Source: Candidatus Nanoarchaeia archaeon (GTDB lineage: Archaea; Nanobdellota; Nanobdellia; Woesearchaeales; UBA525). From it: DNA of 64,000 nucleotides. The stretch's first letter is position 1; every line of letters starts with the position of its first letter. The notes beneath the pieces are model-generated. The model worked only from the letters and a program-made list of their open reading frames with translations. It searched no databases and was not told where the DNA came from. The DNA is taken from NCBI GenBank assembly GCA_028279755.1, contig JANQNB010000010.1, positions 92,963-156,962 of the forward strand, in the 5' to 3' direction. Below, piece after piece: positions 9,947 to 52,453 of the stretch. The position numbers and the translations under genes are program-made.

Positions 9947-10333
9947 TCACTGGAAGAGCTGATCTAGTTCGTCTACGAGGTCACCTTTCTCTATCATGGT
10001 TTTGGGATTCAGGTTGTATTCCTGCGCGACTGCATTGTCGTTCTCAGAGATGTGATTGGACATGAGGATGATCCGCTCTTTGCCAACACCCTGCTCTATC
10101 AGGAATTTCCGCATCTCAGGACCGGCGCGGTAGCTTGGTCCATCTACCCGATCCAAATAGCCGCACATGTCAAGCAAATACAGATCGTACACGTCGCCCA
10201 TTTGCATGAAGAGGTCCTTGCCGGCGGCGACATCCGAGACGCCCGCGACGCTGGTATCAGTCCACCTCATCAACTCGCCAATAATGAAGATCCAATCAGG
10301 ATCATCATCTAGGACAAAAACGTCGATACTCAT
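9947..10333 (-). CDS. Stand-alone CheY-like response-regulator receiver domain protein
   Basis: Started at the internal Met MSIDVFVLDDDPD…, whose ATG overlaps the stop of 10330..11736 (ATGA). Receiver hallmarks present: DD pair (LDDD), phospho-acceptor Asp in 'LYLLDMCGY', S/T in 'ILMSNH', Lys in 'NLNPKT'. No output domain. Confidence 0.6.
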   Translation of the reverse strand: MSIDVFVLDDDPDWIFIIGELMRWTDTSVAGVSDVAAGKDLFMQMGDVYDLYLLDMCGYLDRVDGPSYRAGPEMRKFLIEQGVGKERIILMSNHISENDNAVAQEYNLNPKTMIEKGDLVDELDQLFQ

Positions 10334-24178: not shown

Positions 24179-24182
24179 GCCG

Positions 24183-25569: not shown

Positions 25570-26874
25570 TCATAGTTCTATTTCATCTCCGAGTTCCGGG
25601 CCGTACACCTTGAAGGGTGTCTCTTTCTTCGCCCATGCAAGCATGTTGGTGACGCTTTCCTCATCCCCGTGCTGGATGATGAGTGTTTCCGGCTCGATCT
25701 GCCAGATGGTCTTCTTGATGTCTTCGATGTCTGCGTGTCCTGAAAAATCGAACTTCTTCACCTCGCATTTCACCGGGGTCTTCCAGCCGTCGATGTGCAC
25801 ATAGCCTTCGTCGATCAGGTGCCGGCCGTTCGTGCCCTCTACTTGATACCCTGTCAGGAAGACCGCGTTCTTCGGGTCGTGCCACATGTGCTTTATGTAG
25901 CCCACGGCTGGCCCGCCCTGCATCATGCCGCTGGTGGTGACGAAGATGGCTGGCTGCTGCTGCGCGATTTGCATCCGCCGTTCCTGGCTGGAGATGAGCT
26001 CGACGCGTTCGAACAGCATCTTGTGCAATTTGTCCTTATTGATGACGTAGTCGCTCCTGTTCGCGAGGATCTTTCTCGTGATCTCCTTGCACATCCCGTC
26101 GAAGTAGATCGGGCAGCCGAAATCCTCGTCGGCAAGCATGATGAGTATCTCCTGCGATCGCCCGAGCGCGAACACGGGGACGAGGACCGAGCCGCCGCGT
26201 TGCAGGACTTTCTTGATCTCCTGGACAAAGGTCTGCTCCAAGCCTTTGCGTGGCGGCAGCTTCCTATGGCCGTACGTGCTTTCGGTGATGAAGATGTCGA
26301 TTGGCCCATGCTCGTTCTTGATTTGCTCGCCGTTCGCCGGTTCCATCAGTCTCGTTGTGCGGGTGTTGAAGTCGCCAGTATACAGGATGCGCTTTCCTTC
26401 TGCTTCGCAGAGGATCATCGCGCTTCCCGGGATGTGGCCTGCGTTGAGGAACATGAATTTCAAGTGCCGGTGCTTGTACCAGCGGTTGTAGCTGACCCGG
26501 TGCGCGTCTTTCTGGACTTCTTTCAGGTCGCGCTTGCCCCATGCTGGGTGGAGATGTTTGACATGCGCGATCTTATAGCTGTCCTTGAGCAGGATCTTGG
26601 TGATCGCCAAGGTCTCGTGCGTGAGGAAGATCGGGCAGACGAGGTTGTAGTGCTCCATGAAGGGCAGCGCGCCGGTGTGGTCAAGGTGCGCGTGGCTGAT
26701 GAGCACGCCGTCGATCTTGGGCACGTCGAAGACCTTGTCCGGGTATTTGTAGCCGTGGGTGCAGAACTTGACCCCGCAGTCGAGCAGGTAGCGGTCGCCG
26801 TGCGTCTGTATCTCGATGCAGCTTCTGCCGACTTCTCGCGCTGCGCCATGGAAAATGAGCTTCACACCCTGCAC
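25570..26874 (-). CDS. Metallo-beta-lactamase / beta-CASP family nuclease (aCPSF2-like), first gene of the rbcL operon
   Basis: …LISHAHLDHTGALPF… (HxHxDH), …GHIPGSAMI…, …ILYTGDF…, …FSGHADIEDI…HGDE… are beta-CASP motifs A-C. It ends 1 nt before the rbcL start. Confidence 0.75.
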   Translation of the reverse strand: MQGVKLIFHGAAREVGRSCIEIQTHGDRYLLDCGVKFCTHGYKYPDKVFDVPKIDGVLISHAHLDHTGALPFMEHYNLVCPIFLTHETLAITKILLKDSYKIAHVKHLHPAWGKRDLKEVQKDAHRVSYNRWYKHRHLKFMFLNAGHIPGSAMILCEAEGKRILYTGDFNTRTTRLMEPANGEQIKNEHGPIDIFITESTYGHRKLPPRKGLEQTFVQEIKKVLQRGGSVLVPVFALGRSQEILIMLADEDFGCPIYFDGMCKEITRKILANRSDYVINKDKLHKMLFERVELISSQERRMQIAQQQPAIFVTTSGMMQGGPAVGYIKHMWHDPKNAVFLTGYQVEGTNGRHLIDEGYVHIDGWKTPVKCEVKKFDFSGHADIEDIKKTIWQIEPETLIIQHGDEESVTNMLAWAKKETPFKVYGPELGDEIEL

Positions 26875-30963: not shown

Positions 30964-31245
30964 ATGGTAGTCACTTCCATACCTCTGGTTTTTCGGGAGA
31001 ATCGTCGCGTGCTTTCTCATCTAACCCGCACGATGGCAGCACGGCCTGAAGGCGTGACACGGGAAGAATTGACTTACCGACTCGAAGAGCAAACAGGATC
31101 CACTCACATTGATGGCACTGCAACAGTCGGAGATCATTTGAAAGGTCTGGAACACGCAGGAGTGTTATATTGCCGTGCAGGAGTGTATCGCCTGAACGAT
31201 CCGGTCCCGACACCACGGCGACGCGTGTTAAGAATTCCACAATAG
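30964..31245 (+). CDS. Small putative winged-helix DNA-binding protein
   Basis: …VLSHLTRTMAARPEGVTREELTYRLEEQTGSTHIDGTATVGDHLKGLEHAGVLYCRAGVYRLND is a MarR/PadR-like wing pattern. Start uncertain (M1 or M24). Confidence 0.4.
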   Translation: MVVTSIPLVFRENRRVLSHLTRTMAARPEGVTREELTYRLEEQTGSTHIDGTATVGDHLKGLEHAGVLYCRAGVYRLNDPVPTPRRRVLRIPQ

Positions 31246-31941
31246 GTTGAAATAGTTCAGATGACTCTTGGTTATTTCTTTGTTCTCTATCTTTATCGCT
31301 AAAGGCTCTTTTGACCATTGAATCAAAAGTGTTGTGTCGCCGTAGATGATCGTTGTTGTGGGATTCGTGAACGCGTCGTCGACGAACTTGTACGAGAGTA
31401 GTTTGCGTTCCTTCACTTTTTCCTTCATGCTTCTGGGAAATATCGAGCATTGCTTGATACCTTTCTCTGCCCGTTCCTTATGCCATAATTCGAAATATGG
31501 CCCGAAGAGCTTCTTGAACTGTAGTTCTGCAGCCATAATGGAGATTGGTTTCTTCTTTTGCAGGATTTCCTCAAAGAGCATCCTCAGTCCTTTCTTGCCG
31601 ACGAATATATTCGCTTCGAGTGGAGGACTGTGTGAAGGTTTCAAGGCTTTGATTTCCTTTTGCAGATTTTTCTTACTCCTTTCCAACTCATCCTTCTGGT
31701 TGTCAAGCAGAGTCAGAAGAGATTCCGGCGCCTTCGCTTCAAACCATTTGACTTTGTTTCTCGTGACAAAGGAAACAACTCCCTTGCGTATCAGCCTATC
31801 AAGCGCCTCATAGACATTTGTCCGGTTCAGCTTTGTCTCAGTGCTCAACTTGTTGGCATAGCTCTTGCCGTTGCTGAGCAGGTGCAGGTAGAGCTCGCGT
31901 TCCGATGGTGAGAAACCGAGATGCGCAAGGCTGTTTTGCAT
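31228..31941 (-). CDS. TrmB-family transcriptional regulator (second copy in the window)
   Basis: Started at MQNSLAHLGFSPSERELYLHLLSNGKSYANKLSTETKLNRTNVYEALDRLIRKGVV… (TrmB wHTH), with a C-terminal TrmB-like effector domain. Lower-GC DNA. Confidence 0.65.
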   Translation of the reverse strand: MQNSLAHLGFSPSERELYLHLLSNGKSYANKLSTETKLNRTNVYEALDRLIRKGVVSFVTRNKVKWFEAKAPESLLTLLDNQKDELERSKKNLQKEIKALKPSHSPPLEANIFVGKKGLRMLFEEILQKKKPISIMAAELQFKKLFGPYFELWHKERAEKGIKQCSIFPRSMKEKVKERKLLSYKFVDDAFTNPTTTIIYGDTTLLIQWSKEPLAIKIENKEITKSHLNYFNLLWNS

Positions 31942-32026
31942 GAGATCGGGATCCTGGGAGAAATTAAAAGTGTTGTGGTGTAGAACCACATCTACTCTTT
32001 AAGAACTTGGAAGCATCCTCCTCCGC

Positions 32027-32992
32027 ATGAACAAAAAAATTGCGATAGGGGCTATCGCTGTTGTGCTTATTATAGCACTATATCTCTTCTACCAGCCAGC
32101 CGATACTGAACCTGCCATGACAGTGGGCTACCTTCCTGTACTCGTCAACCTTCCACTCTTTGTCGCGTTGGAGCAAGGGTACTTTTCACAGCAAGGCATC
32201 GTTGTTGAGGCAGTAGAGGCGCAGTCACCGAACCACGTGGTAGAAGGTATCATCTCTGGCCACCTGGATGGCGCAGGTATACTCGCGTATCCCATACTGT
32301 TCGCTGCGGAAGAAAAGTATCCGGGCGAGCTCAAACTGTTCGCTTCAACTGATGAAACCAACAATGAGTATGTGGCGGCGATCATCGTCCGGAACGACTC
32401 GGGGATAAAAGATATCGCTGATCTGGAAGGAAAGCGCGTGGGAGTATACACAGGATTGGTGCAGGTTCTCTTCCTGAAAGGAATCCTTGCCGGGATGGGC
32501 TTTGATCCTGAATATGTGGAAATCGTCCAGATATCTCCTCGTCTGCAACTCCAAGGCCTTGAAGCCGGACAATATGATGCATTATCGACTGTCGAACCCT
32601 TTGTGACCATTGCGAGAAACAAGAACATCGGACGAGTCCTGGTGAGCAACCCAAGAGTCGTGTATATCCAGGAACCCTTCCCCTCAGTCGCCACTCCATT
32701 ATCAGCAGAGTTCATTGAAGAACACCCGGACATCGCAAAAGCCTATCTCCTGGCGTACCGTGATGCGGTAGAGTATATTCGACAGTATCCTGTTGAGGCC
32801 AAGGGAGTTCTCGCGAAATACACGCCAATCGAAGAAGCTGTTGCCCAGGACGTGCGGCTGCCGAGATTCAATCAGTACGGGGAAGAAGACCGGGAAAATG
32901 TCCAGAAGTATGCGGATTGGATGCTTGAGAATGGCTTATTGGAAAAGAGAATCAACGTCACTTCTCTGTTCGGCACTATGATTCTGGACTGA
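32027..32992 (+). CDS. ABC transporter substrate-binding protein, NMT1/THI5 – SsuA/TauA-like (nitrate/sulfonate/taurine class)
   Basis: N-terminal TM/signal MNKKIAIGAIAVVLIIALYL; …TVGYLPVLVNLPLFVALEQGYF…VEAVEAQSPNHVVEGIISGHLDGA… is the SsuA-type periplasmic binding fold. Confidence 0.75.
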   Translation: MNKKIAIGAIAVVLIIALYLFYQPADTEPAMTVGYLPVLVNLPLFVALEQGYFSQQGIVVEAVEAQSPNHVVEGIISGHLDGAGILAYPILFAAEEKYPGELKLFASTDETNNEYVAAIIVRNDSGIKDIADLEGKRVGVYTGLVQVLFLKGILAGMGFDPEYVEIVQISPRLQLQGLEAGQYDALSTVEPFVTIARNKNIGRVLVSNPRVVYIQEPFPSVATPLSAEFIEEHPDIAKAYLLAYRDAVEYIRQYPVEAKGVLAKYTPIEEAVAQDVRLPRFNQYGEEDRENVQKYADWMLENGLLEKRINVTSLFGTMILD

Positions 32993-32999
32993 GGCGCAC

Positions 33000-33737
33000 A
33001 TGTCATTGCTGGCTGTTTCCAAAGTATGGAAGAGTTTCCCGAAGAAACCAGTCTTGAGGAACATAGATATTGAGATCAAGAAAGGAGAATTTGCCACCTT
33101 GTTCGGTCCAAATGGCTGCGGCAAGACAACTTTATTGAATCTCATTGCCGGAATACTTGAACCGGACAAAGGAGATATTGCAATAGATAACAAGTTGCCA
33201 CAAGAGCAAGTTGTTGGCTATGTCTTCCAGAATTACCGTGATTCTCTGCTTCCCTGGAGGACAAACCTGGAGAACATCGCGTTCCCGCTGGAATTGCAAG
33301 GGGTCGCTCAGGAGGAACGAGCCAGAAAAGTGAAGAAATTAGTGAGAAGCCTGGAGTTAAAAATCCCCTTGCACAACTACCCGTATCAGAGCAGTGGAGG
33401 CGAGCAACAGCTTGTCGCGTTCTTGAGAGAGATCATCACCCAGCCGAAACTCATTCTCATGGACGAGCCATTCTCCTCTTTGGATGCTGAAAGCAGGGCA
33501 TATCTGCGGGTGAAGATACAGGAGATAAGCGAAAAAATGGATCTTACCATTCTCTTTGTCTCTCACGACATCGATGAAACGATCCAATTGGGCGACACTA
33601 TCCTCCTCTTCGACGCCAAGAAGAGAACCATTGCCAAGAAGCTGAGCGTCACTCTTGGCAGACCGAGAACTGAAGAGATCATCTACACAGAACCTTTTCA
33701 CAGGATGAAGAAGATACTGCAACGGTATGAAGAATGA
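33000..33737 (+). CDS. ABC transporter ATP-binding protein (SsuB/TauB-like)
   Basis: Walker A 'GPNGCGKTTLLN', signature 'LSGGEQQ', Walker B 'LILMDEPFSSLD', H-loop 'VSHD'. Confidence 0.85.
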   Translation: MSLLAVSKVWKSFPKKPVLRNIDIEIKKGEFATLFGPNGCGKTTLLNLIAGILEPDKGDIAIDNKLPQEQVVGYVFQNYRDSLLPWRTNLENIAFPLELQGVAQEERARKVKKLVRSLELKIPLHNYPYQSSGGEQQLVAFLREIITQPKLILMDEPFSSLDAESRAYLRVKIQEISEKMDLTILFVSHDIDETIQLGDTILLFDAKKRTIAKKLSVTLGRPRTEEIIYTEPFHRMKKILQRYEE

Positions 33738-34480
33738 AAAAATTCGCTGGTTTGGTAGCGATTCTAATCATATGGTTGATTGCCGTCCAGCTTGAGCTCG
33801 TGAAACCCATTTTTCTTCCACCCTTATCTGACGTTGCACTCTCAGTCAAAGAGTCTGTACTGACACTTAATGGTGTGATAACGATTTTCCAGACACTGAA
33901 GAGAACTATTATCGGTTTCTTCTTCGGGCTCTTGTTCGGAATATCCTTTGGTATGTTTCTCGGGCTGAACAAGAAGCTATACGAAACGTGCGAGTGGTTT
34001 GTCGATTTCTTCAGATCAGTCCCAGTAACAGCAATGTTTCCCTTGTTCTTGATTTTCTTCGGTTTCGGAGACCTGTCAAAAATCGCGATGGGTGCGTGGG
34101 CAAGCGGTTTTGTCATCCTGGTAAACACGATCCATGGCGTCTGGAACGTCAAAAAGAATAGGAAACTAATGGCAATGACCAAAGGCGCGTCCAGGACTCA
34201 GATTCTGACAAAGATAACACTCTTTGAAACCTTACCCTACACGTTCGCAGGAGCGAGAATCGGCATTTCCTGGAATCTCATTGTTGTCATTGTGGCAGAG
34301 ATGTTCATAGGGACGGAACAAGGTATAGGCAAGCAGATCTATGATGCAAGCGTGATATTCGATACTGCAACAGTGCTGGGAATGATATTTGTTATTGGGA
34401 TGATAGGCTATGGTCTTAACCAGATGATGCTCTCGCTGGAAAAGAGAGTCGTGCACTGGGAAGGAAATCCTGCTGCTTGA
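33734..34480 (+). CDS. ABC transporter permease (binding-protein-dependent inner-membrane component)
   Basis: 6 predicted TM segments; the start overlaps the ATPase stop (ATGA). Confidence 0.8.
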   Translation: MKKFAGLVAILIIWLIAVQLELVKPIFLPPLSDVALSVKESVLTLNGVITIFQTLKRTIIGFFFGLLFGISFGMFLGLNKKLYETCEWFVDFFRSVPVTAMFPLFLIFFGFGDLSKIAMGAWASGFVILVNTIHGVWNVKKNRKLMAMTKGASRTQILTKITLFETLPYTFAGARIGISWNLIVVIVAEMFIGTEQGIGKQIYDASVIFDTATVLGMIFVIGMIGYGLNQMMLSLEKRVVHWEGNPAA

Positions 34481-34520
34481 AGAGCGCAAACTATTAGAAT
34501 CCTGACGTCTTCACACGCTC

Positions 34521-35534
34521 ATGCACGAAGCGCTCCATTGGAAAGCGGATGGTGAGACAATCACCTGCGAGCTCTGTCCGCGTTTGTGCGTCTTGAAGGA
34601 TGAGCAGATCGGTGCGTGCGGCGTGCGCCAGGTTCGCGATGGGAAACTGTACGCGATGACGTATGCGAAGCCGTGCGCGATCCACGTCGATCCAGTGGAG
34701 AAGAAACCCTTGTATCATTTCTATCCTGGCGAGCCGATACTTTCCCTTGCAACAATTGGCTGCAATTTGTTCTGCGATTTCTGCCAGAACTGGCAGATTA
34801 GTAAAGAAAGATATGATGATATGTTCGACCAGGAAGAAGTTTCGCCAGAAAAGATCATTCAAATGACAAAAGACGCGGGCTGTCGCCTGATCGCGTTCAC
34901 GTACACTGAACCGACTGTCTATTACGAATACATGCTTGACATCGCGAAATTGGCAAAGAAAGAAGGTATGGAGTGTGTGATAGTCAGTAATGGGTATATT
35001 AGTGAAAAACCCCTCAAGGAATTGATCCCATACATTTCTGCAGCCAACATTGACATGAAAGGCACGAAGGAATTCTACAAGAAACGCTGCAAGGTTCCGG
35101 ATTATGAATTCATCAGGAAAACGATTTTGACATTGAAAGGAGCGGGCGTGCATGTCGAGATGACCAACCTGATCATTCCAGAAGAGAACGACAGCGATGA
35201 AGAAATCGAAAAGATGGCACAATGGGTCGCTGAAAATGTCGGGAAAGACACGCCTTTGCATTTCAGCGCGTTCCATCCCGACTACAAGATGATGGACACG
35301 CCGCACACGCCACCTGCAACTTTGATGAAAGCGCGGAAGATTGCTGCAAAACATGTCGATTACATCTATCTCGGCAACATCACTGGTGCTGACAACGATA
35401 CGATCTGCCCGAAATGCGGCGAACTCTGCATCGAACGCCCAGTCTATGGCGGCACAAGCCATCTGAAAAACGGCGAATGTCCGAAATGCGGGCTTGAGAT
35501 TAACGGACGTTTTTCCGGCAAAGGGAAAAAGTGA
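34521..35534 (+). CDS. AmmeMemoRadiSam-system-type radical SAM enzyme (PflA-like activase family)
   Basis: N-terminal Cys cluster 'CELCPRLCVLKDEQIGACGVRQVRDGKLY' and radical-SAM 'CNLFCDFCQNW' (CxxxCxxC). Length and layout match the TIGR04337-type family. No AMMECR1/MEMO1 partner genes are adjacent. Confidence 0.75.
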   Translation: MHEALHWKADGETITCELCPRLCVLKDEQIGACGVRQVRDGKLYAMTYAKPCAIHVDPVEKKPLYHFYPGEPILSLATIGCNLFCDFCQNWQISKERYDDMFDQEEVSPEKIIQMTKDAGCRLIAFTYTEPTVYYEYMLDIAKLAKKEGMECVIVSNGYISEKPLKELIPYISAANIDMKGTKEFYKKRCKVPDYEFIRKTILTLKGAGVHVEMTNLIIPEENDSDEEIEKMAQWVAENVGKDTPLHFSAFHPDYKMMDTPHTPPATLMKARKIAAKHVDYIYLGNITGADNDTICPKCGELCIERPVYGGTSHLKNGECPKCGLEINGRFSGKGKK

Positions 35535-35592
35535 TTCTGTAGCGCGCAGCGCTTTCGTTTTTTCTTCACAAAGCCATTTCTAAGCTTTCGCA

Positions 35593-37614
35593 ATGCAACT
35601 CCGCATGCGTGCCAGCATACTCTTCGGACTGCTCATCCTGACCGAGCCAATAAGCGCGATGCAGTTCACTGAAGTCATGTACGATCCGCCAGGCAGCGAC
35701 AACAATAAGGAATTCATAGAAATCCACGGCGAGAGCAATCTTTCCGGCTGGATCATCGGCGATCTCGCGAGCAACGACACGCTTGTTCCACTGTTCATCA
35801 ACGCCTCCAGCAACTACTCGATTATTGTTGAAGAAGGCTTTGAGTATGAGAATTTATCCTGTAACGTGTATTCGGCTGGCGCAACGATCGGCAACAACCT
35901 GAACAACGCTGGCGACGCGATCAGGCTCTACGCGCCGAATGGTTCGCTCGCGCTGGAATTCTGGTTCGATGACAGCCTGGCGAAGAACAATGGTATGGCG
36001 CTTGCGCTGCTGAATGGCACGTGGCAGGAAGCGCTGCCAACACCCTGTGTTTTAAATATTTACTATATGGAAAATAATTCAAATATCACAGATTCCAGCG
36101 CGTATGACCTCAGTTTGACCCCCGCATTACCCACGACCATATACGCCGGTGTCTCGTACGACAGCTTGTTTCGCATCAGGAACGAGCTGTACGAGACCGG
36201 CGTTTCGGGCTATGTGAACGCTTCTGCGGTCTACAATCTCTCCCAGAACGGCTCAGTGCTGGTGAATGGCAGCTTCTCTGTAGTCCTCAAGAGCTACAAG
36301 ACAGCAGGCACAGGCAGGCTTCAGATCAATGCCACGGGAAATTACACGCTCTGCGCGAGGATCGCTTGGACCAATGTCACTGATGAGAACCCTGAGAACG
36401 ACGCGATCTGCCAGGAAATCACTGTGCTGGATCCTTTTGCTCAACCCTGCAACGTTTCCCTAGAACTCCAAATCAAAGAACCACAGCTATACTATGAATC
36501 AGGAAATAAAATAAAATTCTGGAACAAGTTATTGCGACATGACAACAATACAGAACTCCCACCCTATATTATCCGCTACGAGATCCAGGACTTGCAAGGC
36601 AAAACAGTGCGAGTCACAACGACAGAAAACCAGAACCTGAAGACCTGGACACCGAAGTTGAAAGATGCATTAGGAGTATTCATACTCACAAACCAATTCG
36701 ACATGCTTGCGTGCAACAATAGTAACAATGACACTCAAAACAAACAACTCATAGTGGTTCAGGGAGAAAAAGTAATTCCTGAGAATGAATCTTCAATTGA
36801 AATCACCAATCTGCACATTCCGAAAAAAGGGTATCGGTTCGGCGACATCGTGAAAGTGAGTATGCATGCCTACAAAGGCAATACTTCAAAGTATAGTATC
36901 AAACTCTACGTCGAGGATGTGAAAGGCCGCAAGGTTTCAAGCACGACATCGTTCCATGCCAAGCAGAAATTCCAAGATTATCAAGTAACTATGCCGATTG
37001 TACTCAAAGATTCGACAAAAAGCGGCCAGCACAAGGTCGTGATTGAAGGTTTAGGCAAACAACGCAGCAAGAATCTATGGATAAAGACGAAGGAAATCAA
37101 AATTGTACAAAATGTAACTGCTCACAAACCCAAGAAACAATTTTCAATCGCGTCTTTCTACACAAGGAGTAAAAAGGCGAACAAGAAAATCAACGTGTAT
37201 GCGAGAATCAAGGGAAAAGGCAACGCAACGCTTGAATTGGTCGGACTTGAAGATCACGATAGCGTTCCAATCAGTATCAACAAGTCATTTTCGTACAAAA
37301 AAGAGGTCGCAATGCAAAACGGTCCAAATGTTTTCCTCCTCAAAATACTCGAAAAAGAAAAAATCCTCGATCAAAGAACTCTCTTGCTCGAAATGGACAC
37401 AGAGATACAAGAAGTCCAGTTCTTTTCAGGAAAAAGAAAAACACTGACTCGCCCCAATTCCCCGAGCCAAGCAACAAACTCCACACCGAACAAGACCTCT
37501 CTCCTCACAGGCGCCGCCACCTACACGACAAAGAGCACGACACGCACCGTGCCAATCCTGCTCGGCATCATCGGCACGCTCCTGCTCGGCATCATCCTTC
37601 AACACAAGCGTTAA
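35593..37614 (+). CDS. Cell-surface protein: signal peptide + lamin-tail-domain (LTD)-like N-terminus + long Asn-x-Ser/Thr-rich region + C-terminal TM anchor
   Basis: MQLRMRASILFGLLILTEPISA is a signal peptide. 'FTEVMYDPPGSDNNKEFIEIHG' is the LTD consensus (…NP.G.D…EFIEL.N). There are more than 30 N-glycosylation sequons. The C-terminal TVPILLGIIGTLLLGIILQHKR is a TM anchor plus basic tail. Confidence 0.6.
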   Translation: MQLRMRASILFGLLILTEPISAMQFTEVMYDPPGSDNNKEFIEIHGESNLSGWIIGDLASNDTLVPLFINASSNYSIIVEEGFEYENLSCNVYSAGATIGNNLNNAGDAIRLYAPNGSLALEFWFDDSLAKNNGMALALLNGTWQEALPTPCVLNIYYMENNSNITDSSAYDLSLTPALPTTIYAGVSYDSLFRIRNELYETGVSGYVNASAVYNLSQNGSVLVNGSFSVVLKSYKTAGTGRLQINATGNYTLCARIAWTNVTDENPENDAICQEITVLDPFAQPCNVSLELQIKEPQLYYESGNKIKFWNKLLRHDNNTELPPYIIRYEIQDLQGKTVRVTTTENQNLKTWTPKLKDALGVFILTNQFDMLACNNSNNDTQNKQLIVVQGEKVIPENESSIEITNLHIPKKGYRFGDIVKVSMHAYKGNTSKYSIKLYVEDVKGRKVSSTTSFHAKQKFQDYQVTMPIVLKDSTKSGQHKVVIEGLGKQRSKNLWIKTKEIKIVQNVTAHKPKKQFSIASFYTRSKKANKKINVYARIKGKGNATLELVGLEDHDSVPISINKSFSYKKEVAMQNGPNVFLLKILEKEKILDQRTLLLEMDTEIQEVQFFSGKRKTLTRPNSPSQATNSTPNKTSLLTGAATYTTKSTTRTVPILLGIIGTLLLGIILQHKR

Positions 37615-41347: not shown

Positions 41348-42073
41348 TTATTTCACGATCACCATCCCAAGATTCGTTCTCGGTTGATCATAGTCTCCCG
41401 CGATGAACTTGTCCATAATCCATTTCTGGTAATACTGATATGCAAGACGATCTGCGTTGAACATTTCAGGCGCTGCAGTCACAAAGGCGAACTCTTCAAG
41501 GGTGTAAGGGGTGCCGATCTCGATGCGTTTGGGAAGCGTGAGGAGTTTCCCCGCTTGTCGAGCGATGTATCCTGGTCCGAAACGACGCAGCCGGTCCAGT
41601 GTGAGTCGTTGCCTGAACTGTCCCATCAAGACATGCTGTGTTTCGCTCTGAACTGCGCGCCTGAATGCAGCATTTGACTGGTACAGTGCATGATGATATG
41701 CCAGCTGTTTCTGATATTCTGGGTGTTGCTCAATTTCTGGCCAGCGATGCACGGTGAACTTCTTTGGGAGTTCTCCGCTATAGAGTTTCTTTGCCATGTT
41801 GATGAGCCGGTTTCCTTCTAAACGCGCTTTTGCTGCGATGGGTTTGCTGATGCCAATCGCGCGATAGGTATGCTCTGTTGGTGTGTCAGGGATAAAGAGT
41901 TCTATACGATCAAACAAGCAATCAGCTATGTCCAAGAAGGCTGCAACCCTATCTCGCTTGAAGTAACCGTTGCCAGGGCACAAGGGAACAAGCCCAACGC
42001 CCTTGTTATTGATGATGTCATAGCCTGTCTCGTAAGCTGGCCCTCGCAATCCGCACATAACATCTATAGTCAT
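41348..42073 (-). CDS. tRNA-dependent cyclodipeptide synthase (CDPS, AlbC-like) homolog; Cys at the position of the catalytic Ser
   Basis: Started at the ATG (MTIDVMCGLRG…) inside the GTG-initiated track ORF. '…GVGLVPLCPGNGYFKRDRVAAFLDIADCLFDRIELFIPDT…' parallels AlbC '…ALIGISAGNSYFSQKNTVMLLQWAGQRFERTDVVYVDT…'. '…EEFAFVTAAPEMFNAD…' parallels AlbC '…YVLAEAPLFADS…'. Size (~240 aa) fits the family. AT-rich gene next to an Lrp regulator. Confidence 0.5.
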   Translation of the reverse strand: MTIDVMCGLRGPAYETGYDIINNKGVGLVPLCPGNGYFKRDRVAAFLDIADCLFDRIELFIPDTPTEHTYRAIGISKPIAAKARLEGNRLINMAKKLYSGELPKKFTVHRWPEIEQHPEYQKQLAYHHALYQSNAAFRRAVQSETQHVLMGQFRQRLTLDRLRRFGPGYIARQAGKLLTLPKRIEIGTPYTLEEFAFVTAAPEMFNADRLAYQYYQKWIMDKFIAGDYDQPRTNLGMVIVK

Positions 42074-42137
42074 TACTGAATAGTAGATATTCGACACTAT
42101 AATAAATATTTCATTCGAAAATACGACAAATGAGGAA

Positions 42138-42150
42138 TTTTTATATAATA
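42138..42150 (+). promoter_or_regulatory. TATA-box-like element (TTTTTATATAATA) ~25 bp upstream of the Lrp-family gene start; the intergenic region is shared divergently with the CDPS-like gene
   Basis: Seen directly; matches the archaeal TATA consensus. Confidence 0.4.
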
Positions 42151-42170
42151 AATGCTATATTAATCGTAAA

Positions 42171-43184
42171 ATGGACAAGCGAGACCTCCAATTGATGGAA
42201 ATCCTCGCGCAAAACTGCCGGATTTCCCACACCACACTAGCACAAGCGCTCAGAGTCTCGAAAGACACAGTCGCATACAAGATCAAGAAGCTGGAGGAAA
42301 CTGATTACCTTACCCAATACGTCCTGTTCATTGATGCGCGCGTCCTCGGACTAACAAGATATCACTTGCTGATCCAGTTCGACGCAGGTATAGACAAGCA
42401 AGCAACGTACGACAAGATCATCAACCATAAAAATGTCATGTGGGTGAACACCTTCATCGGTCGCTTCGACATCCAGATCATAGTCGATGCTCATGACGGC
42501 TTTCATCTCAACAAGATACGGGAAGAGCTCTTCGAACTCTGCGAACATAAGGTGAAGGAATACATTGTGTTGACCTGTCTCTACGATCTCGAATTCACGC
42601 AGCTCAACCCAGTGCTTGATCTGAAAACACCTTTCCAAAAAAAACTTGATCATTCTTTCAGCGAACTCCTCACGACAAGGAATTTTCCTGTCAAACCCAC
42701 GTTTGTCAAATACACACCAACAAAGACTGAAACTGAAATCCTGAAAATCCTAGCAGATAATCCTCGTGAATCATTGACAAACATCAGCAGACAACTGAAA
42801 ATCGACAGGAACACAGTAAAACAGCGTATCATCAATCTGATCAAGAATAAAGTCATCATCAACTTTGGCGCAATTCCAAACTTGTCAAAGCTGGGTTTCG
42901 TAACATATTACATGCTGGTGAGAATTGCGCAAGATACTCCTTATGAGGTCTTCAAGAAGCCCTTTACCAAGCTGCAGAACATCTTCTACGCTGGCAGGAT
43001 GATTGGTGATTATGACATGATCCTCTATCTCAACGCACGAACTCCTGAAGAGCTCAACTCCAGCATCGAATTGTTCAAAGCAGAGATAGAACAGCACATT
43101 GTCCACTACGACCTCCTTGTCCAAGACAAAGTGCATTACTGGCGCCAGTTCACGCCCGGAATCTATGAAGGATTGCAACATTAA
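42171..43184 (+). CDS. Tandem Lrp/AsnC-family transcriptional regulator (two HTH+RAM modules fused)
   Basis: Module 1: MDKRDLQLMEILAQNCRISHTTLAQALRVSKDTVAYKIKKLEETDYL… + RAM-like. Module 2: …TETEILKILADNPRESLTNISRQLKIDRNTVKQRIINLIKNKVI… + RAM-like. Both are AsnC-type HTH signatures. Confidence 0.75.
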   Translation: MDKRDLQLMEILAQNCRISHTTLAQALRVSKDTVAYKIKKLEETDYLTQYVLFIDARVLGLTRYHLLIQFDAGIDKQATYDKIINHKNVMWVNTFIGRFDIQIIVDAHDGFHLNKIREELFELCEHKVKEYIVLTCLYDLEFTQLNPVLDLKTPFQKKLDHSFSELLTTRNFPVKPTFVKYTPTKTETEILKILADNPRESLTNISRQLKIDRNTVKQRIINLIKNKVIINFGAIPNLSKLGFVTYYMLVRIAQDTPYEVFKKPFTKLQNIFYAGRMIGDYDMILYLNARTPEELNSSIELFKAEIEQHIVHYDLLVQDKVHYWRQFTPGIYEGLQH

Positions 43185-43237
43185 GCACTGGTCATCCACG
43201 CGGAGCACATATAAACATCCATGCTTTTGTTCTCGTC

Positions 43238-43393
43238 ATGTTCCTCGTGAAGTGTCCGCGCTGCGGCAAGAACCAGAAGTGCCAGCCAAAGCCAGGCCTC
43301 GTCACAACGAAAAGCAAGCGCTGCGTCTACTGCGGACGAACATTCAAGATCCATTCTAACTTAGAAAAGAGCAGGATTGTGAGAAAGCTCTAA
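43238..43393 (+). CDS. Candidate small zinc-ribbon protein (51 aa; not in ORF track)
   Basis: Hand translation: [51 protein letters not shown] has two CxxC pairs (CPRC…CVYC). TATA-like 'catataaaca' ~20 bp upstream. The 3' end overlaps the gyrA stop convergently. Confidence 0.35.
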
Positions 43394-47113: not shown

Positions 47114-47502
47114 CACTCACTGACTGGGCGACCGCCTATATCAAGCACCGCGACCTGTTCGAGCGGAAAATCGCACGCATCGAGCAAAAGGAACAGGAAC
47201 TCCTCATAACGCACAAAGACGACTCTGTCCATCCCTGTTTTGTCCTCGACACCCTCGACGAACCCATACTGGAGAAACTCGGCAGAATCCACATCGTCAC
47301 CAAGAACCTGAAAGACAACGTCGCGTTCGTCGCGAAGCACTGGAAGGAATTCTCGCAGCACGAAGGACTCAAGCTCATCTTCGCGAACGAAGCGCGCAAT
47401 GAGAAATGGGTTCTGATCCCGCACGGCCATGCCAAGATTGCCGATCCGGCAAGCCTGAAAACTGGTCTCTTAGCGATGCACGACGCAGTGCCAGAAGGCT
47501 AA
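47110..47502 (+). CDS. Hypothetical cytoplasmic protein (130 aa)
   Basis: ATGA overlap with the preceding gene; no recognisable motif. Confidence 0.45.
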   Translation: MTLTDWATAYIKHRDLFERKIARIEQKEQELLITHKDDSVHPCFVLDTLDEPILEKLGRIHIVTKNLKDNVAFVAKHWKEFSQHEGLKLIFANEARNEKWVLIPHGHAKIADPASLKTGLLAMHDAVPEG

Positions 47503-48404
47503 TTCTCCAGGCTGGAGTCATGCACTGGGAGTTCTGGCTGTGGTGGCTCTCGTGGCGGCGCCTGCCTCTTCTTCTCGAAGATGAAGGCGAGCACAGCCAC
47601 GATGATGAAAGCCGCGATGAGTCCCATCCAGAGAATCATGCGCAGCTGGCTTTTCTCAGGTGCTTCAACAGGGGTTTCGATCTCGTCAACAACGCTTCCG
47701 GTCGACGCTTCCGGCGCAGTCTCCTCTGGCGGCGCCACGATGATCGTCTCGTTCGGCTCTGGCTCAGTCTCGTTCGTTGGCCATTCGAACTGCTCTTCCA
47801 GCTCTTCCATCTCGAAGTCAGCGCCAGCCTGATCGACCTTGATGACCCTGATGAGGATATCGTTGACTGTGTCAGCGTCGAGATCGACCTCCTTCTCCTC
47901 ACCTTCAGCAACCTCAACCTCAAGCGGCTCTGATTCGAACAGGAACGTAACGACCTTGTTCACGATGCGCTTGATCGTCACCCGATGGCTGTGCGTGCCG
48001 ACAGTGAAATCCCTGCTGGTCTGCAACGAGAGCCGCACCGGCGCAGGCGTCTCGCTCAGCACGAGATCTGCGAATTCAGCGCCGCCTCCACCCCCACCAC
48101 CCCCGCTGGGGATGTCGACAGTCTGGTTGGAGTCATTCGTGGGGCTCGCAGTCGCGAGCGCGGTGAGGAAACCGACTGTGCCTTCATACCCGCCACCGCT
48201 GCCGATCGCGACAGGGCTTGTCGTGAAACTGTAGCGCCCGGTGTAATTGCTGCTGTTCAGCTCGCCGCCAGACAAGGAAGTGGTGAACAAAGGGACTGTG
48301 TAATTGCCCCCGCTCGCGTTGATCGCAGTCGCGACAGGAAGCGCAAGAAGGAAGAGAAGCACAATGATTACACGCATGTTCCGTTGCCCCCGATCACCTC
48401 CCAC
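47499..48404 (-). CDS. Secreted, C-terminally membrane-anchored protein with poly-Gly stretch and acidic region
   Basis: Signal-like MRVIIVLLFLLALPVATA (internal to M1). N-glyc sequons, 'GGGGGGGG', and a C-terminal TM LRMILWMGLIAAFIIVAVLAFIF + KKRQ. Immediately downstream of the giant surface-protein gene. Confidence 0.5.
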   Translation of the reverse strand: MGGDRGQRNMRVIIVLLFLLALPVATAINASGGNYTVPLFTTSLSGGELNSSNYTGRYSFTTSPVAIGSGGGYEGTVGFLTALATASPTNDSNQTVDIPSGGGGGGGGAEFADLVLSETPAPVRLSLQTSRDFTVGTHSHRVTIKRIVNKVVTFLFESEPLEVEVAEGEEKEVDLDADTVNDILIRVIKVDQAGADFEMEELEEQFEWPTNETEPEPNETIIVAPPEETAPEASTGSVVDEIETPVEAPEKSQLRMILWMGLIAAFIIVAVLAFIFEKKRQAPPREPPQPELPVHDSSLEN

Positions 48405-51400
48405 GCGGTGCTGTTGTAGAAGCAGAGGGCGTTGGAACTGTCGACATAAAGATCGCCCAGACCACCGGCTCCTGGAGCGCTAGCACGTGGCGTCAGGGAA
48501 AGCACATCGTTGATTGTCACATTATTTGTTGAATTGATCATTCCCGTCGAATTGGTCCAGCCGGCAGCGCTGCTCTGATACGGCACGCTCGTCAGGTAGG
48601 TCGCGTTGCCGAGTGTTTCGTTCCATGCGAGCACGCCGCTGTTGTTGTAGAGCCATTCGCTTCCTGTGATGCTCCATTTGCTGCCGCTGCCACCGACGGT
48701 GCTGAGGCAAGTCGTGCTGTTGATGCAGATGTCACTTGTCGCGTTGATGACGCCCACGACATGCAATGCAGTCTGCGGGGAAAAGGTGCCGATGCCGACA
48801 TTCCCGCCAAGCACAGTCAGGTTACCAGTGCTGATGTTCACGTCAAGATTTGTCCAGATCTGCGTCGTCGTGTTCGACCAGCCAGCTGCACTGTTCTGGT
48901 ATGGCACGCTCGTGAGATAGGTGCTGTTCGCGAGCGTTTCGTTCCATTCGAGTATTCCTGAGTTGTTGATGAGCCATTCGCTTGTGCTGATGTCCCAGAC
49001 AGTGTCTGTGCTGCCGCTTTGGTTGCAGAGTCCGTTAGTTGGTGTGCATACTTGGCTGCCGTTGACTGTCAGGTTCTGTGTGAATGCCCAGGTTCCAGTG
49101 ATGTTCTCGTTCTGTGCGAGGAATGGCACGAGGCTGAGATTTGCTGCCCATAATGGGTCGCTTTCTGTGTAGCTGGTGAGGTATCCTGCTGCGCTGTGGT
49201 TGCCCCACGCGTATGCCGTGTCCCAGCTTGTCTTGTTGTAGCCGGAATAGTTCGCTGCCCAGAGCGGGTCGCTTTCTGTGTAGCTCGTCAAGTAGGTTGC
49301 GTTTCCTCGTGTGTAGTTCCAGTCGAGGACACCGCTGTTGTTGATGAGCCAGCCGCTTGTGGTGATGTTCCATTTGCTGCCGCTGCCACCGACGGTGCTC
49401 AGACAGGTCGTGCTGTTGATGCAGATGTCGCCTGTCGCGTTGATCGTGCCGATGACATGCAACGTACTGTTTGGGTCCGACGTACCGACTCCGATGAAAT
49501 TACTGCCGTTCTCGAAACTGAGCACGTCGTAATTGGAAGCATTCTTCACGAGTAGGTCGCCGTTGATCGTCTGGAACTCCCATTCCTGGTTCCCACCTGA
49601 CATGAAGGTGAGACCGTGGCCATTGTTGGCGCTGTTCGCATCGATGAGGACATAGACGCTGCCAGCCGAGCTGAAGAAGCGATGATTGAGACCCTGCACA
49701 TCGAGTTCGTAGCTTGGCGTGTTGGTGTTGATTCCCACCCTGCCGTTTTTGTTGTCGACGAACAGATTTGGTTCCAGCAAGCTACCATCAAAGCCGATGC
49801 TGACATTGGTCGAGTTGCTGACAAGCGAAATCAATGAGCTCGTGTTCTGCCAACCGCCGGTGCCGTCTGCGCTTCCTCCGCTTGCGTTAATCTCGATGGT
49901 GCTGCCGCTTCTCGTGACTGTCACGCCAGAGCCGCCGGTAAGGTTGACGGTCGTACCGTTGGTGATGCTTGTGCTGCCACTCGTGCCGCTAGCTGCGAGG
50001 AGCCAGCCTGTGTAGTTGCCGCCTCCGCCGCTTCCGTTGCACAGGCCGTTGTTCTGCGTGCACACTTGGCTGTCGTTGACGTAGAGCGTTCCGGTGATGT
50101 TTGTTGTGCTTGCGTTGAGGTAGATGTCGCCGCCTGCTGAATAGATCGCCCAGTTGTTGTCTGCGCCTGCGACGTTGTCGAGGTAGATGCCGTAGAGGTT
50201 GTGCGTGCCAGCGCCGGCGTTGTCGATGTGACCGATGTTGAGGTGCAGCCCGTAAGTGTTGATCGTTCCGCCGGTCGCGCCGGTGCGGTTCGTAACGCTA
50301 GCGCGAAGTGCGTAGGTGTTATCAGTCCCTGAAGAGATTGGCGCCCTATTGACGACGTAGAAGTGTCCGGCTGATGTATTGCCATTCCCAATCGTGGAGC
50401 TGCCCCTGTCGGCCCACGCCTGAATGCCTGTTGTTGTATCATTCGCGTCCCAAGCTGCAGCTCTGATACCGTAGATATCGTCGACAGAACCGCTGCCTGT
50501 ATTTGCGGCAAAGCTGTCCATGGCATACATGATGGTGACATTGCCAGAGCCTTGGTGCCGGATGTCGTTGTAGATGCCCGCGATCTCGCCGATGTTCTGC
50601 GAGTTTGCGCTGTGTGTGAAGATCTCATTGTCGATGCCGAAGAAGCTCTGCGCCGTAGCGTCAGCTTGTGGACTGAGCAGGTGGTAATTGATGATGCCTT
50701 CTGTGTACCCGGCAGTGAGGTTTGTGTGGTTCTCACCAATATTCAGCGTGACATCCACAACGCCAGGCCAGAGGACCAAGATTTGATCGATCGATGCGTC
50801 GCTACCGAGCGCCATGTGCTCGGCCACGTCGAGCGTGCCGTTGATGCTGACGTTCAGACTCGTATTGGTCTGTGTCGAGCCGTTTGTCCAGCCGCCGGTG
50901 CCGTTTGCGGAGCCGCCGCTGCACAAGCCATTGCTTGCGGTGCAGACGCGGTTGCCTGATTCCACAAAGAGCGAGCCTGAAGCGTTGACATACGCCACGG
51001 TGGTGTTCGTGCCGTTCTTCCACTCAGTCAGATTGGCGGCTTGAGAAGCAACACCCCTGATGGCAAGAGGTACGACAGTAGTATTCATCGTCTCGATCTC
51101 TACTTGCGCGGTAGGAGCGGTTTCGACCACGCCCAGCTTACCATCACTGAGCACGGTGAGATACCTATCAGTTCCGACGTATGGTCGTATCTGGAAAAGC
51201 TCTGCTGTTTGTCCATTCGCTCCGCGAATAACAAAGGTTTTCTTTGACACATTCGTCGAGCCTGCAGTTGTTCTCGCATCGCTGACTGGAGTCGTGCTTC
51301 CCAAGCCAATTCTGTTATTGATGGGATCTACGAAGAGTAAATCGAAGTCATCGTGGCTGCTGAACACCAGCCCTCCAGTGTTTTGTTGGTGGAGCGCGAC

Positions 51401-52453
51401 GAAATCATCGCTGCCGGATTGTGCGTTCTTGAACACTACTGACCAATACGACTGGCTGGGCACCTCAAAGGCTGCGACGGTACCGATGCCGCCCCAACTT
51501 CCATTTGTTCGGTTAACATGCAAGCCTCCCTGAGGATTAGACGTGCCGATACCGACATTCAAGGTTGTTGATGTGTTCTGGCTGCTGTTGGTCCATCCGC
51601 CGGTGCCGTCTGCGCTGCCACCTGATTGGTTGCACAAGCCGTTTGCTGGCGTGCAGACTTGCGAGCCGTTCACCCAGAGCCGTGAGTTGTTGCCTGAGAA
51701 GTTGCCAGAACCGACCACGTGGAGTGCTTGAGTCGGACTGCTCGTGTTGATGCCTACTCTACCTGTTCCTGATTCGAGGAAGAGCACTGTGCCAGCGCTG
51801 CCGAAGATGTCTTGAAATGTCAGATGCCGGTTTCCAGCATAGATTCTCCATTCCTCTGCCGCTGCCCCGTAGAGTCTGAACCCGTGCCCGTTGTTTGCGC
51901 TGCCTGATTCAATCGAAATGTACGCGCTGCCAGTCGGCGATAAAACCTGGATCTGATTGAACGTGTCGCCCTGGAATGTTAGGAGATTGCTACCTCCCCC
52001 GTTCACTGTGACTTCTCCAGTGATGTTCACGTCCTGCGTTGTTGTCGTCATGGTCCCGTTCGTGCTCCAGCCTGTGACTGTGCTCTCGTTCACCAGACTC
52101 TGATTGTTGATCAAGCCAAGGGAGGAATACCAGGTGAGCCGTTCGCTGCCGTCGAAGTCAAGATCGGTGCCGTCGATCGCGTAATCCTTCCAGTACTGCT
52201 TGCCGAACTCAGCATTAGTCAAATTTACCTGTACGTTCCACGAGCCATTCACGATCGCGCCAGTATAGGTGTTATTGAAGAGCGCAGTCCCGCCAGTGGC
52301 CGCATCCCAGAGTGTGATGGTCAAATCTGCGCTCGCCACTGTCGTGCCGTTGAGCGTCACGCCGCTGCCTTGGTCAGTGAAGAAGACATCGAGCGCCATG
52401 ACAGGCGTCACGAGCATGAGAAACATGAAGAGTATCCAGAGCTGTCTCACCAT
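48368..52453 (-). CDS. Giant (1361 aa) secreted repeat-rich cell-surface protein (possible S-layer/adhesin-like)
   Basis: Signal peptide MVRQLWILFMFLMLVTPVMA. Dispersed repeats '…V(N/E)GSQVCTP(A/T)NGLCNQSGG(S/T)(A)DGTGGWTN(S/G)S…' and '…LHV(V/I)G.(I/G)N(A/F)…' occur at least 4 times, with abundant NxS/T sequons and very high Thr/Asn/Gly/Ser content. Confidence 0.65.
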   Translation of the reverse strand: MVRQLWILFMFLMLVTPVMALDVFFTDQGSGVTLNGTTVASADLTITLWDAATGGTALFNNTYTGAIVNGSWNVQVNLTNAEFGKQYWKDYAIDGTDLDFDGSERLTWYSSLGLINNQSLVNESTVTGWSTNGTMTTTTQDVNITGEVTVNGGGSNLLTFQGDTFNQIQVLSPTGSAYISIESGSANNGHGFRLYGAAAEEWRIYAGNRHLTFQDIFGSAGTVLFLESGTGRVGINTSSPTQALHVVGSGNFSGNNSRLWVNGSQVCTPANGLCNQSGGSADGTGGWTNSSQNTSTTLNVGIGTSNPQGGLHVNRTNGSWGGIGTVAAFEVPSQSYWSVVFKNAQSGSDDFVALHQQNTGGLVFSSHDDFDLLFVDPINNRIGLGSTTPVSDARTTAGSTNVSKKTFVIRGANGQTAELFQIRPYVGTDRYLTVLSDGKLGVVETAPTAQVEIETMNTTVVPLAIRGVASQAANLTEWKNGTNTTVAYVNASGSLFVESGNRVCTASNGLCSGGSANGTGGWTNGSTQTNTSLNVSINGTLDVAEHMALGSDASIDQILVLWPGVVDVTLNIGENHTNLTAGYTEGIINYHLLSPQADATAQSFFGIDNEIFTHSANSQNIGEIAGIYNDIRHQGSGNVTIMYAMDSFAANTGSGSVDDIYGIRAAAWDANDTTTGIQAWADRGSSTIGNGNTSAGHFYVVNRAPISSGTDNTYALRASVTNRTGATGGTINTYGLHLNIGHIDNAGAGTHNLYGIYLDNVAGADNNWAIYSAGGDIYLNASTTNITGTLYVNDSQVCTQNNGLCNGSGGGGNYTGWLLAASGTSGSTSITNGTTVNLTGGSGVTVTRSGSTIEINASGGSADGTGGWQNTSSLISLVSNSTNVSIGFDGSLLEPNLFVDNKNGRVGINTNTPSYELDVQGLNHRFFSSAGSVYVLIDANSANNGHGLTFMSGGNQEWEFQTINGDLLVKNASNYDVLSFENGSNFIGVGTSDPNSTLHVIGTINATGDICINSTTCLSTVGGSGSKWNITTSGWLINNSGVLDWNYTRGNATYLTSYTESDPLWAANYSGYNKTSWDTAYAWGNHSAAGYLTSYTESDPLWAANLSLVPFLAQNENITGTWAFTQNLTVNGSQVCTPTNGLCNQSGSTDTVWDISTSEWLINNSGILEWNETLANSTYLTSVPYQNSAAGWSNTTTQIWTNLDVNISTGNLTVLGGNVGIGTFSPQTALHVVGVINATSDICINSTTCLSTVGGSGSKWSITGSEWLYNNSGVLAWNETLGNATYLTSVPYQSSAAGWTNSTGMINSTNNVTINDVLSLTPRASAPGAGGLGDLYVDSSNALCFYNSTAWEVIGGNGTCV

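Follow-up and report, generated by a model that had tools for sequence, protein, structure and literature searches.

The characterized cyclodipeptide synthases (CDPSs) closest to the enzyme described in this report are AlbC from Streptomyces noursei (PDB 3OQV) and YvmC from Bacillus licheniformis (PDB 3OQI/3OQH). Both belong to the NYH type. YvmC forms cLL with a Ser nucleophile and is encoded alongside a P450 in a bacterial operon for pulcherriminic acid. The active-site serine is regarded in CDPS enzymology as family-defining, and a 2018 census of the family used the catalytic serine as an inclusion criterion and dropped sequences "lacking the catalytic serine," a filter that may have hidden a natural Cys branch (PMC5816076). 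By 2017, the literature had recorded a single archaeal CDPS, which is of the XYP type. Here, we describe a locus in a 64,000-nucleotide stretch (hereafter, the window) of contig JANQNB010000010.1 from Candidatus Nanoarchaeia archaeon (GCA_028279755.1), in which a gene for a CDPS-family protein with Cys at the catalytic position (Cys32) lies divergent to a gene for a tandem (fused double) Lrp/AsnC regulator (hereafter, Lrp). We consider it probable that the first gene encodes a working NYH-type, tRNA-dependent CDPS that uses Cys32 as its nucleophile and that it forms one half of a conserved two-gene module with the tandem Lrp gene.

The first gene encodes a member of the CDPS family by both homology and fold. 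The 241-aa protein matched PF16715 at 62.3 bits (E 7e-17, cut-off 27) and TIGR04539 at 86.1 bits (E 2e-24, cut-off 45). An AlphaFold2 model, built from a 68-sequence alignment, has a mean predicted local distance difference test score of 94.9 and a predicted template modeling (TM) score of 0.91. When the model was compared with the PDB using Foldseek, the best 43 matches were all CDPSs (TM 0.69–0.84), including YvmC, AlbC, Rv2275, and Nbra-CDPS, and tyrosyl-tRNA synthetases ranked next. The predicted fold is thus a single-domain, Rossmann-type fold related to the catalytic domains of class Ic aminoacyl-tRNA synthetases. YvmC was the best structural match (target-normalized TM 0.84, E 1.3e-11) with a sequence identity of 16–17%, and AlbC has the same fold (Foldseek probability 1.00) with about 17–19% identity. 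The family scores and the predicted fold therefore agree on the CDPS assignment that a first-pass annotation of the window had proposed from the sequence. An exhaustive HMMER search returned 262 relatives at E ≤ 0.001, the nearest of which are 37–39% identical. A word-indexed search, run first with the protein and next with a 5-sequence profile, retrieved no sequence other than the protein itself and one bacterial homolog, P0022.

The residue that aligns with the catalytic Ser37 of AlbC is Cys32, as the first-pass annotation had suspected. The best PDB sequence match by phmmer was 4Q24, in which LIGICAGNSYF of AlbC aligned to LVPLCPGNGYF of the window protein; 4Q24 is an engineered S37C variant of AlbC (PMC12945691). 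Two family alignments, anchored on AlbC and with numbering checked against the residues named in PMC3105412, gave the same result, and the model places Cys32 in a strand-to-helix loop (between strand 26–30 and helix 40–53). Since the protein contains no Ser before residue 76, Cys32 is the sole candidate nucleophile in this loop. The remaining equivalences to AlbC are Pro30 to G35, Asn35 to N40, Tyr190 to Y178, Glu194 to E182, Tyr214 to Y202, and Tyr215 to H203. The x-G-N-x-Y-F motif that follows the nucleophile is shared with AlbC, as are Y178, E182, Y202, and N40, and the 68-sequence alignment shows no variation at the equivalents of E182 and Y202. In the model, Tyr190 and Glu194 are found in a long helix (180–204) and Tyr214 at the end of strand 210–214, a topology that, together with Cys32, matches the one described for S37, Y178/E182, and Y202 of AlbC (PMC3105412). 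Two of the three AlbC alignment blocks in the first-pass annotation were correct. The third was off by approximately eight residues, its true register being YTLEEFAFV with YVLAEAPLF of AlbC, and the position of Glu182 had seemed ambiguous because of this misregistration; in the family alignment, the equivalent is Glu194, which is conserved.

With respect to subfamily, Asn35 and Tyr214 of the NYH triad are kept and Tyr215 occupies position 203, giving "NYY." The protein does not belong to the XYP subfamily, as position 203 is not Pro, and its relatives are overwhelmingly of the NYH type. Because Ser37 and Gly35, which are conserved in the literature, are both replaced, we file the protein as a Cys variant of the CDPS family and not as a canonical member. 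It differs from AlbC in that its Cys is natural, whereas the Cys of 4Q24 is engineered, in having Pro at Gly35 and Tyr at His203, and in its pocket residues (LPFPWFVY/EHVGQW- for pockets P1/P2 compared to LGVVLLFL/MAVNITP in AlbC). Moreover, its host is archaeal, it is paired with an Lrp gene, and there is no cyclodipeptide oxidase or tailoring gene nearby. In the NYH subfamily, helix α4 is basic and serves in tRNA binding; by a simple residue count, residues 75–104 of the window protein, which span model helix 79–96, contain seven Lys/Arg and two Asp/Glu.

While membership in the family, the fold, the residue identities, the synteny, and the promoter conservation are shown by the data, we infer CDPS activity, a thioester intermediate, a diketopiperazine product, and regulation by Lrp as follows. 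By analogy with AlbC, a first aminoacyl-tRNA would pass its amino acid to Cys32 to form a thioester, with Tyr190 and Glu194 positioning the aminoacyl group. Reaction with a second aminoacyl-tRNA would yield a dipeptidyl-enzyme, which would cyclize to the 2,5-diketopiperazine with the help of Tyr214. The CDPS and Lrp genes would be read in opposite directions from two TATA promoters that lie back-to-back, about 40 bp from each other. The tandem Lrp most likely responds to an amino acid or some related small ligand and controls the CDPS gene as well as its own expression. Within the module, the window CDPS would be an unusually diverged copy in which the change from AGT to TGY, the Gly-to-Pro replacement two residues upstream, and the His-to-Tyr replacement beside the cyclization Tyr arose on a long branch; the specificity pockets changed as well.

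A Cys nucleophile in the window enzyme is plausible from what has been established with AlbC. The S37A variant is inactive, while the S37C variant retains part of the activity. As with the wild type, the label of [3H]Phe-tRNA stays on this variant, and tandem mass spectrometry located Phe on C37 in thioester linkage (PMC3105412). A mere analogy is offered by Cys-dependent thioesterase/cyclase domains of nonribosomal peptide synthetases such as MacB-TE, which represent a peptide-cyclizing class that normally uses Ser and has rare natural Cys members (PMC13288461). These domains differ in having an unrelated α/β hydrolase fold and in acting on carrier-protein thioesters instead of aminoacyl-tRNAs.

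The replacement also recurs in nature. Among the 138 listed relatives that cover position 37, 23 have Cys, 114 have Ser, and one has Asn. Of the 18 full-length Cys proteins, counting the window protein, 13 have Pro at the Gly35 position, four have Ala, and one has Gly, whereas Gly is found there in 81 of approximately 100 Ser proteins. Likewise, His203 is replaced by Tyr in nine of the 18 Cys proteins compared to about 4% of the Ser proteins. Since one group of Cys proteins (clade B, 98% bootstrap) stands apart from the window protein and P0135 is a further Cys singleton, the Ser-to-Cys change has arisen at least twice. This recurrence, and the covariation of Cys37 with Pro/Ala35 and Tyr203, speaks for selection rather than decay. 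What is new is a natural Cys nucleophile with covarying residues; the chemistry was anticipated by the AlbC S37C mutant. No paper describing a natural Cys-type CDPS was found in the literature covered, which was not exhaustive. With Cys in about one in six listed relatives and a consistent change at Gly35, the family lends itself to comparing acyl-enzymes of the ester and thioester kinds.

The gene contexts of four other Pro-x-Cys proteins (P0003, P0004, P0008, and P0022) have no neighbors in common and lack both an Lrp gene and tailoring genes, and the idea of a Cys-specific gene cluster was therefore rejected. In one of these contexts, P0022, a bacterial Cys-type CDPS found in a Bryobacterales metagenome-assembled genome (MAG; PMSX01000186.1) and in JGI contigs (L001 4962–5789 and L003 8001–8783), is encoded at the end of an ATP-binding cassette (ABC) transporter operon (ATPase, SBP_bac_8 binding protein, and fused permease), where its gene and that of the permease share 4 bp. 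The genes downstream encode a CHAT/TPR protein, an S41 peptidase, and an integrase.

The partner of the window CDPS was proposed in the first-pass annotation to be a fused double Lrp/AsnC regulator, and the domain analysis bears this out. The 337-aa protein contains two stretches each of AsnC-type helix-turn-helix (HTH_AsnC/HTH_24; HTH_AsnC-type 59.6 bits, cut-off 27) and RAM (AsnC_trans_reg; 27.2 bits, cut-off 25), and its halves match different regulators, residues 1–103 matching PH0061 and residues 185–302 matching FL11/PH1519. Each half is thus a full HTH and RAM unit like those of the feast/famine regulatory proteins FL11 (PH1519), PH0061, LysM, and LrpA; the difference is that two units are fused in one chain, which scored below the cut-offs of the LysM, LrpA, Lrp, and AsnC equivalog models (e.g., LysM, 85.6 bits against 180). 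We found 113 orthologs of the tandem protein at 46–79% identity, and wherever a source is named, it is a MAG of Candidatus Woesearchaeota, Nanoarchaeota, or Nanoarchaeia. By sequence comparison, this regulator is thus encoded by a conserved, Woesearchaeota-type (DPANN) gene. Together with the archaeal genes of the window given below, the orthologs point to a Woesearchaeota-type DPANN archaeon as the host.

The window CDPS stands out among the CDPSs that are encoded beside orthologs of this regulator. Eleven other Lrp-paired CDPSs all have Ser, which is encoded by AGT in the nine that were read at the codon level. Their Gly35 position is mostly Gly, with Trp in L014 and Pro in L027, and His203 is found in all ten that could be aligned at the C-terminus (L022 could not be aligned there). 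The L027 enzyme (2201–2977, minus strand) has the loop P-M-S-C-G-N, in which Pro replaces Gly35, Ser37 is kept, and Cys is found at position 38, and this loop could represent an intermediate-like state. A second, Lrp-like gene fragment is present at the L027 locus. The closest comparators are the Lrp-paired, Ser-type enzymes of Woesearchaeota-type MAGs such as GCA_004196315.1 (SDBT01006044.1) and GCA_053531095.1 (JAIYRO010000113.1, L029), which share the gene architecture, the promoter boxes, and the NYH-type residues with the window and have regulators that are 74–78% identical to the window Lrp. These enzymes differ in having Gly35, Ser37, His203, and the pocket IGMAWFLY, and are 61–82% identical to each other compared to 30–37% to the window enzyme. 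Where the window is not involved, the CDPSs are more alike the more alike their regulators are (61–78% with Lrp at 83–88%, and 42–49% with Lrp at 58–70%), whereas for pairs that involve the window an Lrp identity of 60–75% is accompanied by a CDPS identity of 30–37%. L029, whose Lrp (78%) is the nearest among orthologs on contigs that could be read, illustrates this, as its Ser-type CDPS is 82% identical to that of L017 and 33% identical to that of the window.

This mismatch could also indicate that an ancestral Ser-type CDPS was displaced by a laterally acquired, distant Cys-type enzyme with the same function while the regulator remained native, an explanation that we consider possible but rather doubtful. 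In its favor, the window protein grouped in the first neighbor-joining trees with P0003, P0004, and P0022, which are all Pro-x-Cys proteins and include one from a Bryobacterales bacterium, and the GC content at third codon positions (GC3) of the window CDPS gene is 0.53, below the mean of the window genes (0.68 ± 0.10). Lateral movement does occur in this system. The CDPS–Lrp pair of L029 (4154–5955) has a GC3 of 0.29 compared to 0.45–0.64 in six flanking genes, and this sharp break indicates that the pair was acquired laterally as a unit. However, when the three signature columns were removed from the bootstrapped neighbor-joining analysis, this grouping received a bootstrap support of 9%, and a monophyletic Cys clade containing the window protein (clade A) was rejected. 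In 84% of the replicates, the nearest protein by distance was an Lrp-paired, Ser-type CDPS (L017, L011, or L028). Furthermore, the other Pro-x-Cys proteins (35–39% identity) are no closer to the window enzyme than are the orthologs, and the window promoters have exactly the same architecture and spacing to the start codons as at the orthologous loci. A change from AGT to TGT is a single transversion. On this sequence comparison, accelerated in situ divergence of the window CDPS is favored over replacement.

Divergence of this extent raises a second alternative, which is that the window protein is a neofunctionalized or crippled homolog that stalls, releases a linear product, feeds another acceptor, or is becoming a pseudogene. 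The long branch would fit such a protein, as would the pocket residues (LPFPWFVY/EHVGQW- in the window compared to IGMAWFLY/TTVGDWE in the main ortholog group), of which four of eight in P1 and most in P2 differ from those of the orthologs. In addition, the genes next to the window CDPS include none for tailoring or export, and substitution of Gly35 is harmful and S37C lowers activity in AlbC. Yet the gene has an intact frame and a conserved promoter, its product is modeled with very high confidence, and all other catalytic residues are kept, including the equivalent of Tyr202 for cyclization. Moreover, the combination of Pro/Ala35 and Cys37 recurs in independent lineages and so looks compensated and selected. 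We therefore regard loss or change of the CDPS reaction as unlikely and take the altered pockets to mean that the product is probably different from that of the orthologs. The P1 motif is closest to those of enzymes with Pro or Leu in P1 (LGFPWFMF and LGFPWLVF), which is a weak lead toward Pro or Leu in P1 of the window enzyme.

The remaining question is whether the CDPS and Lrp genes belong together. Divergent placement beside a target gene and autoregulation are common in the Lrp/AsnC family. Lrp/AsnC proteins are also often global regulators, and the two genes could be chance neighbors with no regulatory meaning, an explanation that would accommodate the five of 17 distinct Lrp loci with upstream sequence in which the Lrp gene has no CDPS. 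We consider this very improbable. In the other 12 loci, a CDPS gene lies upstream of the Lrp gene in the same divergent arrangement and at a similar spacing (about 96–121 bp; 261 bp in L027), while all remaining neighbors vary from locus to locus. At three of the five exceptions, a conserved, membrane-like open reading frame (ORF) of 120–130 aa takes the place of the CDPS, and other genes are found at the remaining two. The membrane-like ORFs (L012 6500–6892, L013 6543–6905, and L030 195–581, each on the minus strand) are hydrophobic, have the same promoter architecture, and belong to no Pfam family.

The control region between the genes is conserved as well. Across 14 loci (window and 13 others), it aligns with 64% mean column identity, with the TATA box of the CDPS promoter invariant and the core of the Lrp box (TTTATAT, 42140–42146) invariant or nearly so in all 14. 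The box centers are 29 bp from the CDPS ATG and 27 bp from the Lrp ATG, distances that imply back-to-back promoters with leaderless or near-leaderless transcripts. A semi-conserved AAGAAnnATGCGTAATATT element lies between both boxes and abuts the Lrp TATA box, and is a candidate operator for the Lrp protein. Taken together, the conserved pairing and the conserved control region provide good comparative evidence of a functional CDPS–Lrp link and strongly support the regulator-target pair that the first-pass annotation had considered plausible. The break in composition at L029 and the unrelated flanks everywhere also suggest that the module moves between Woesearchaeal genomes. The view that CDPSs are uncommon in archaea applies to the literature and not to this lineage. 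We found no paper that deals with CDPSs together with Woesearchaeota, DPANN, or Nanoarchaeota, and the CDPS–double Lrp module of DPANN archaea is previously undescribed.

An error of sequencing or assembly in a normal Ser-type gene, conceivable for a single strain from a metagenome-derived genome, can practically be dismissed, as TGC differs from the AGT of the orthologs at two bases and the Pro codon CCC from GGA at three, an identical 241-aa protein with the same gene order is found in the independent Logan assembly SRR20820740, and 23 other natural proteins have Cys at position 37.

Several observations nevertheless weigh against a functional Cys-type CDPS controlled by Lrp. The S37C variant of AlbC is less active than the wild type, and G35A, at the position that is Pro in the window enzyme, is poorly active (PMC3105412). 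The bootstrapped neighbor-joining tree gives the window CDPS no supported position, and its nearest relative, at 37–39% identity, is too distant for purifying selection to be measured. The pocket motifs behind the Pro/Leu guess were called non-determinant by their own source paper. On the regulatory side, the candidate operator is degenerate in the window and less conserved than in the relatives, and the Lrp gene is also paired with a small membrane protein at three loci and with other genes at two, so Lrp does not serve as a regulator of CDPS genes alone.

It is unexpected that many Woesearchaeota-type genomes, from organisms whose biosynthetic capacity is minimal, encode a CDPS together with a dedicated and highly conserved double Lrp. 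This suggests a regulated, possibly signaling, role for cyclic dipeptides in a host-dependent lifestyle. A bolder proposal is that the Cys CDPSs form a mechanistic class of their own, with an outcome altered by the thioester, and that the CDPS–Lrp pair is a mobile, host-signaling cassette in genome-reduced DPANN archaea, which we regard as improbable. If it were true, examples of the outcome could be aminoacyl or dipeptidyl transfer to another acceptor or products beyond the reach of Ser enzymes. The module is small enough for direct expression and gel-shift tests.

Table 1. Coordinates of the features of the CDPS–Lrp locus (positions within the window)
Feature	Position	Strand	Details
CDPS-family gene	41348..42073	(-)	241 aa and TAA stop; ATG at 42073-42071
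Segment of the Tyr190–Tyr215 codons	41429..41506	(-)	Tyr190 41504-41506, Glu194 41492-41494, Tyr214 41432-41434, Tyr215 41429-41431
Cys32 codon, TGC	41978..41980	(-)	Catalytic Ser37 position of AlbC
Pro30 codon, CCC	41984..41986	(-)	Conserved Gly35 position of AlbC, lining pocket P1
Divergent control region of the CDPS and Lrp genes	42074..42170		97 bp, 21.6% GC
Predicted TATA box of the CDPS promoter	42098..42106	(-)	TATAATAAA, equal to TTTATTATA on the minus strand; invariant in 14/14 loci
Middle element, candidate Lrp operator	42114..42129		Degenerate copy of the consensus AAGAAnnATGCGTAATATT
Predicted TATA box of the Lrp promoter	42138..42148	(+)	TTTTTATATAA
Tandem (fused double) Lrp/AsnC regulator gene	42171..43184	(+)	337 aa
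CxxC...CxxC zinc-ribbon ORF	43238..43393	(+)	51 aa; adjoins the CDPS–Lrp pair, outside the conserved module

All three ORFs of the first-pass annotation were recovered at its coordinates. For the CDPS gene, an upstream GTG would give a 249-aa protein, the NCBI product (P0001) is 236 aa with its ATG at 42058, and the Logan call is 241 aa with its start at 42073. Of the three starts, the ATG at 42073 is favored, as the conserved TATA box lies 29 bp upstream. The zinc-ribbon ORF is also called as a gene in the Logan assembly, but its matches to zinc-ribbon Pfam families are all sub-threshold; it has no counterpart in any related locus and was therefore rejected as a member of the module. An α/β hydrolase gene lies tail-to-tail with the CDPS gene and was likewise rejected as a module member from the comparison with related loci, and gyrA lies on the other side of the locus. 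Packing is very tight at both ends, with the convergent hydrolase gene ending at 41347 and the CDPS stop codon starting at 41348, and with a 4-bp, tail-to-tail overlap of the zinc-ribbon ORF and gyrA (43390–43393); neither junction has space for a terminator. No cyclodipeptide oxidase, P450, or methyltransferase gene is found beside the CDPS gene at any locus, including the window.

The first-pass annotation had also described the locus as an AT-rich islet. Low GC is real, as the segment 41348–43393 has a GC content of 45.7% compared to 54.2% for the whole window and 55–58% for the flanks. No other 2,046-bp stretch of the window has a lower GC content (proportion with the same or a lower value, 0.0008). 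GC3 is also below the average of the window genes, at 0.58 for the Lrp gene as well as for the CDPS gene noted above. The drop is uneven, with 44.5% in the Lrp gene, 49.4% in the CDPS gene, and the minimum in the intergenic region. Part of the low GC of the Lrp gene, whose GC content at second codon positions is 0.27, is due to a conserved amino acid composition rich in Lys, Ile, and Asn. The locus is not simply a foreign insertion, as the Lrp gene is a conserved gene of the lineage, and with more than 100 orthologs at 46–79% identity a recent foreign islet is unsupported for this gene. The contrast in composition is also milder in the window than at L029. We read the islet as an older or partly ameliorated state and not as a recent insertion. 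Related loci have a GC content of 26–48%, among which the 54% of the window is unusual. A second low-GC stretch in the window (31228–37614; 45–50% GC, GC3 0.54–0.59) encodes a TrmB-type regulator, an NMT1/THI5-like binding protein with an ABC ATPase and a permease, and a 673-aa protein with a lamin-tail domain.

A tRNA scan of the whole window found no tRNA. An ORF of 1,361 aa (48368–52453, minus strand) has no Pfam match at E ≤ 1e-5 and an unusually high second-position GC of 0.50, and the 301-aa ORF that overlaps it (47499–48404) has no Pfam match either. Six paralogs of 352–473 aa are encoded on the minus strand (8063–9121, 10330–11736, 14115–15359, 15356–16654, 16647–18068, and 18065–19471), four of them in an uninterrupted tandem run. 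Their N-terminal parts have no Pfam match, and their only recognizable part is a C-terminal, PEP-utilizing "mobile" (swiveling phosphohistidine) domain. The archaeal genes of the window include PCNA and an AMP-salvage trio encoded in a row on the minus strand (21831–25568), which consists of an IF-2B-type ribose-1,5-bisphosphate isomerase, an AMP phosphorylase (562 bits compared to an equivalog cut-off of 535), and a form III RuBisCO. Two β-CASP RNases are encoded near this trio (25570–26874 and 12495–13922).

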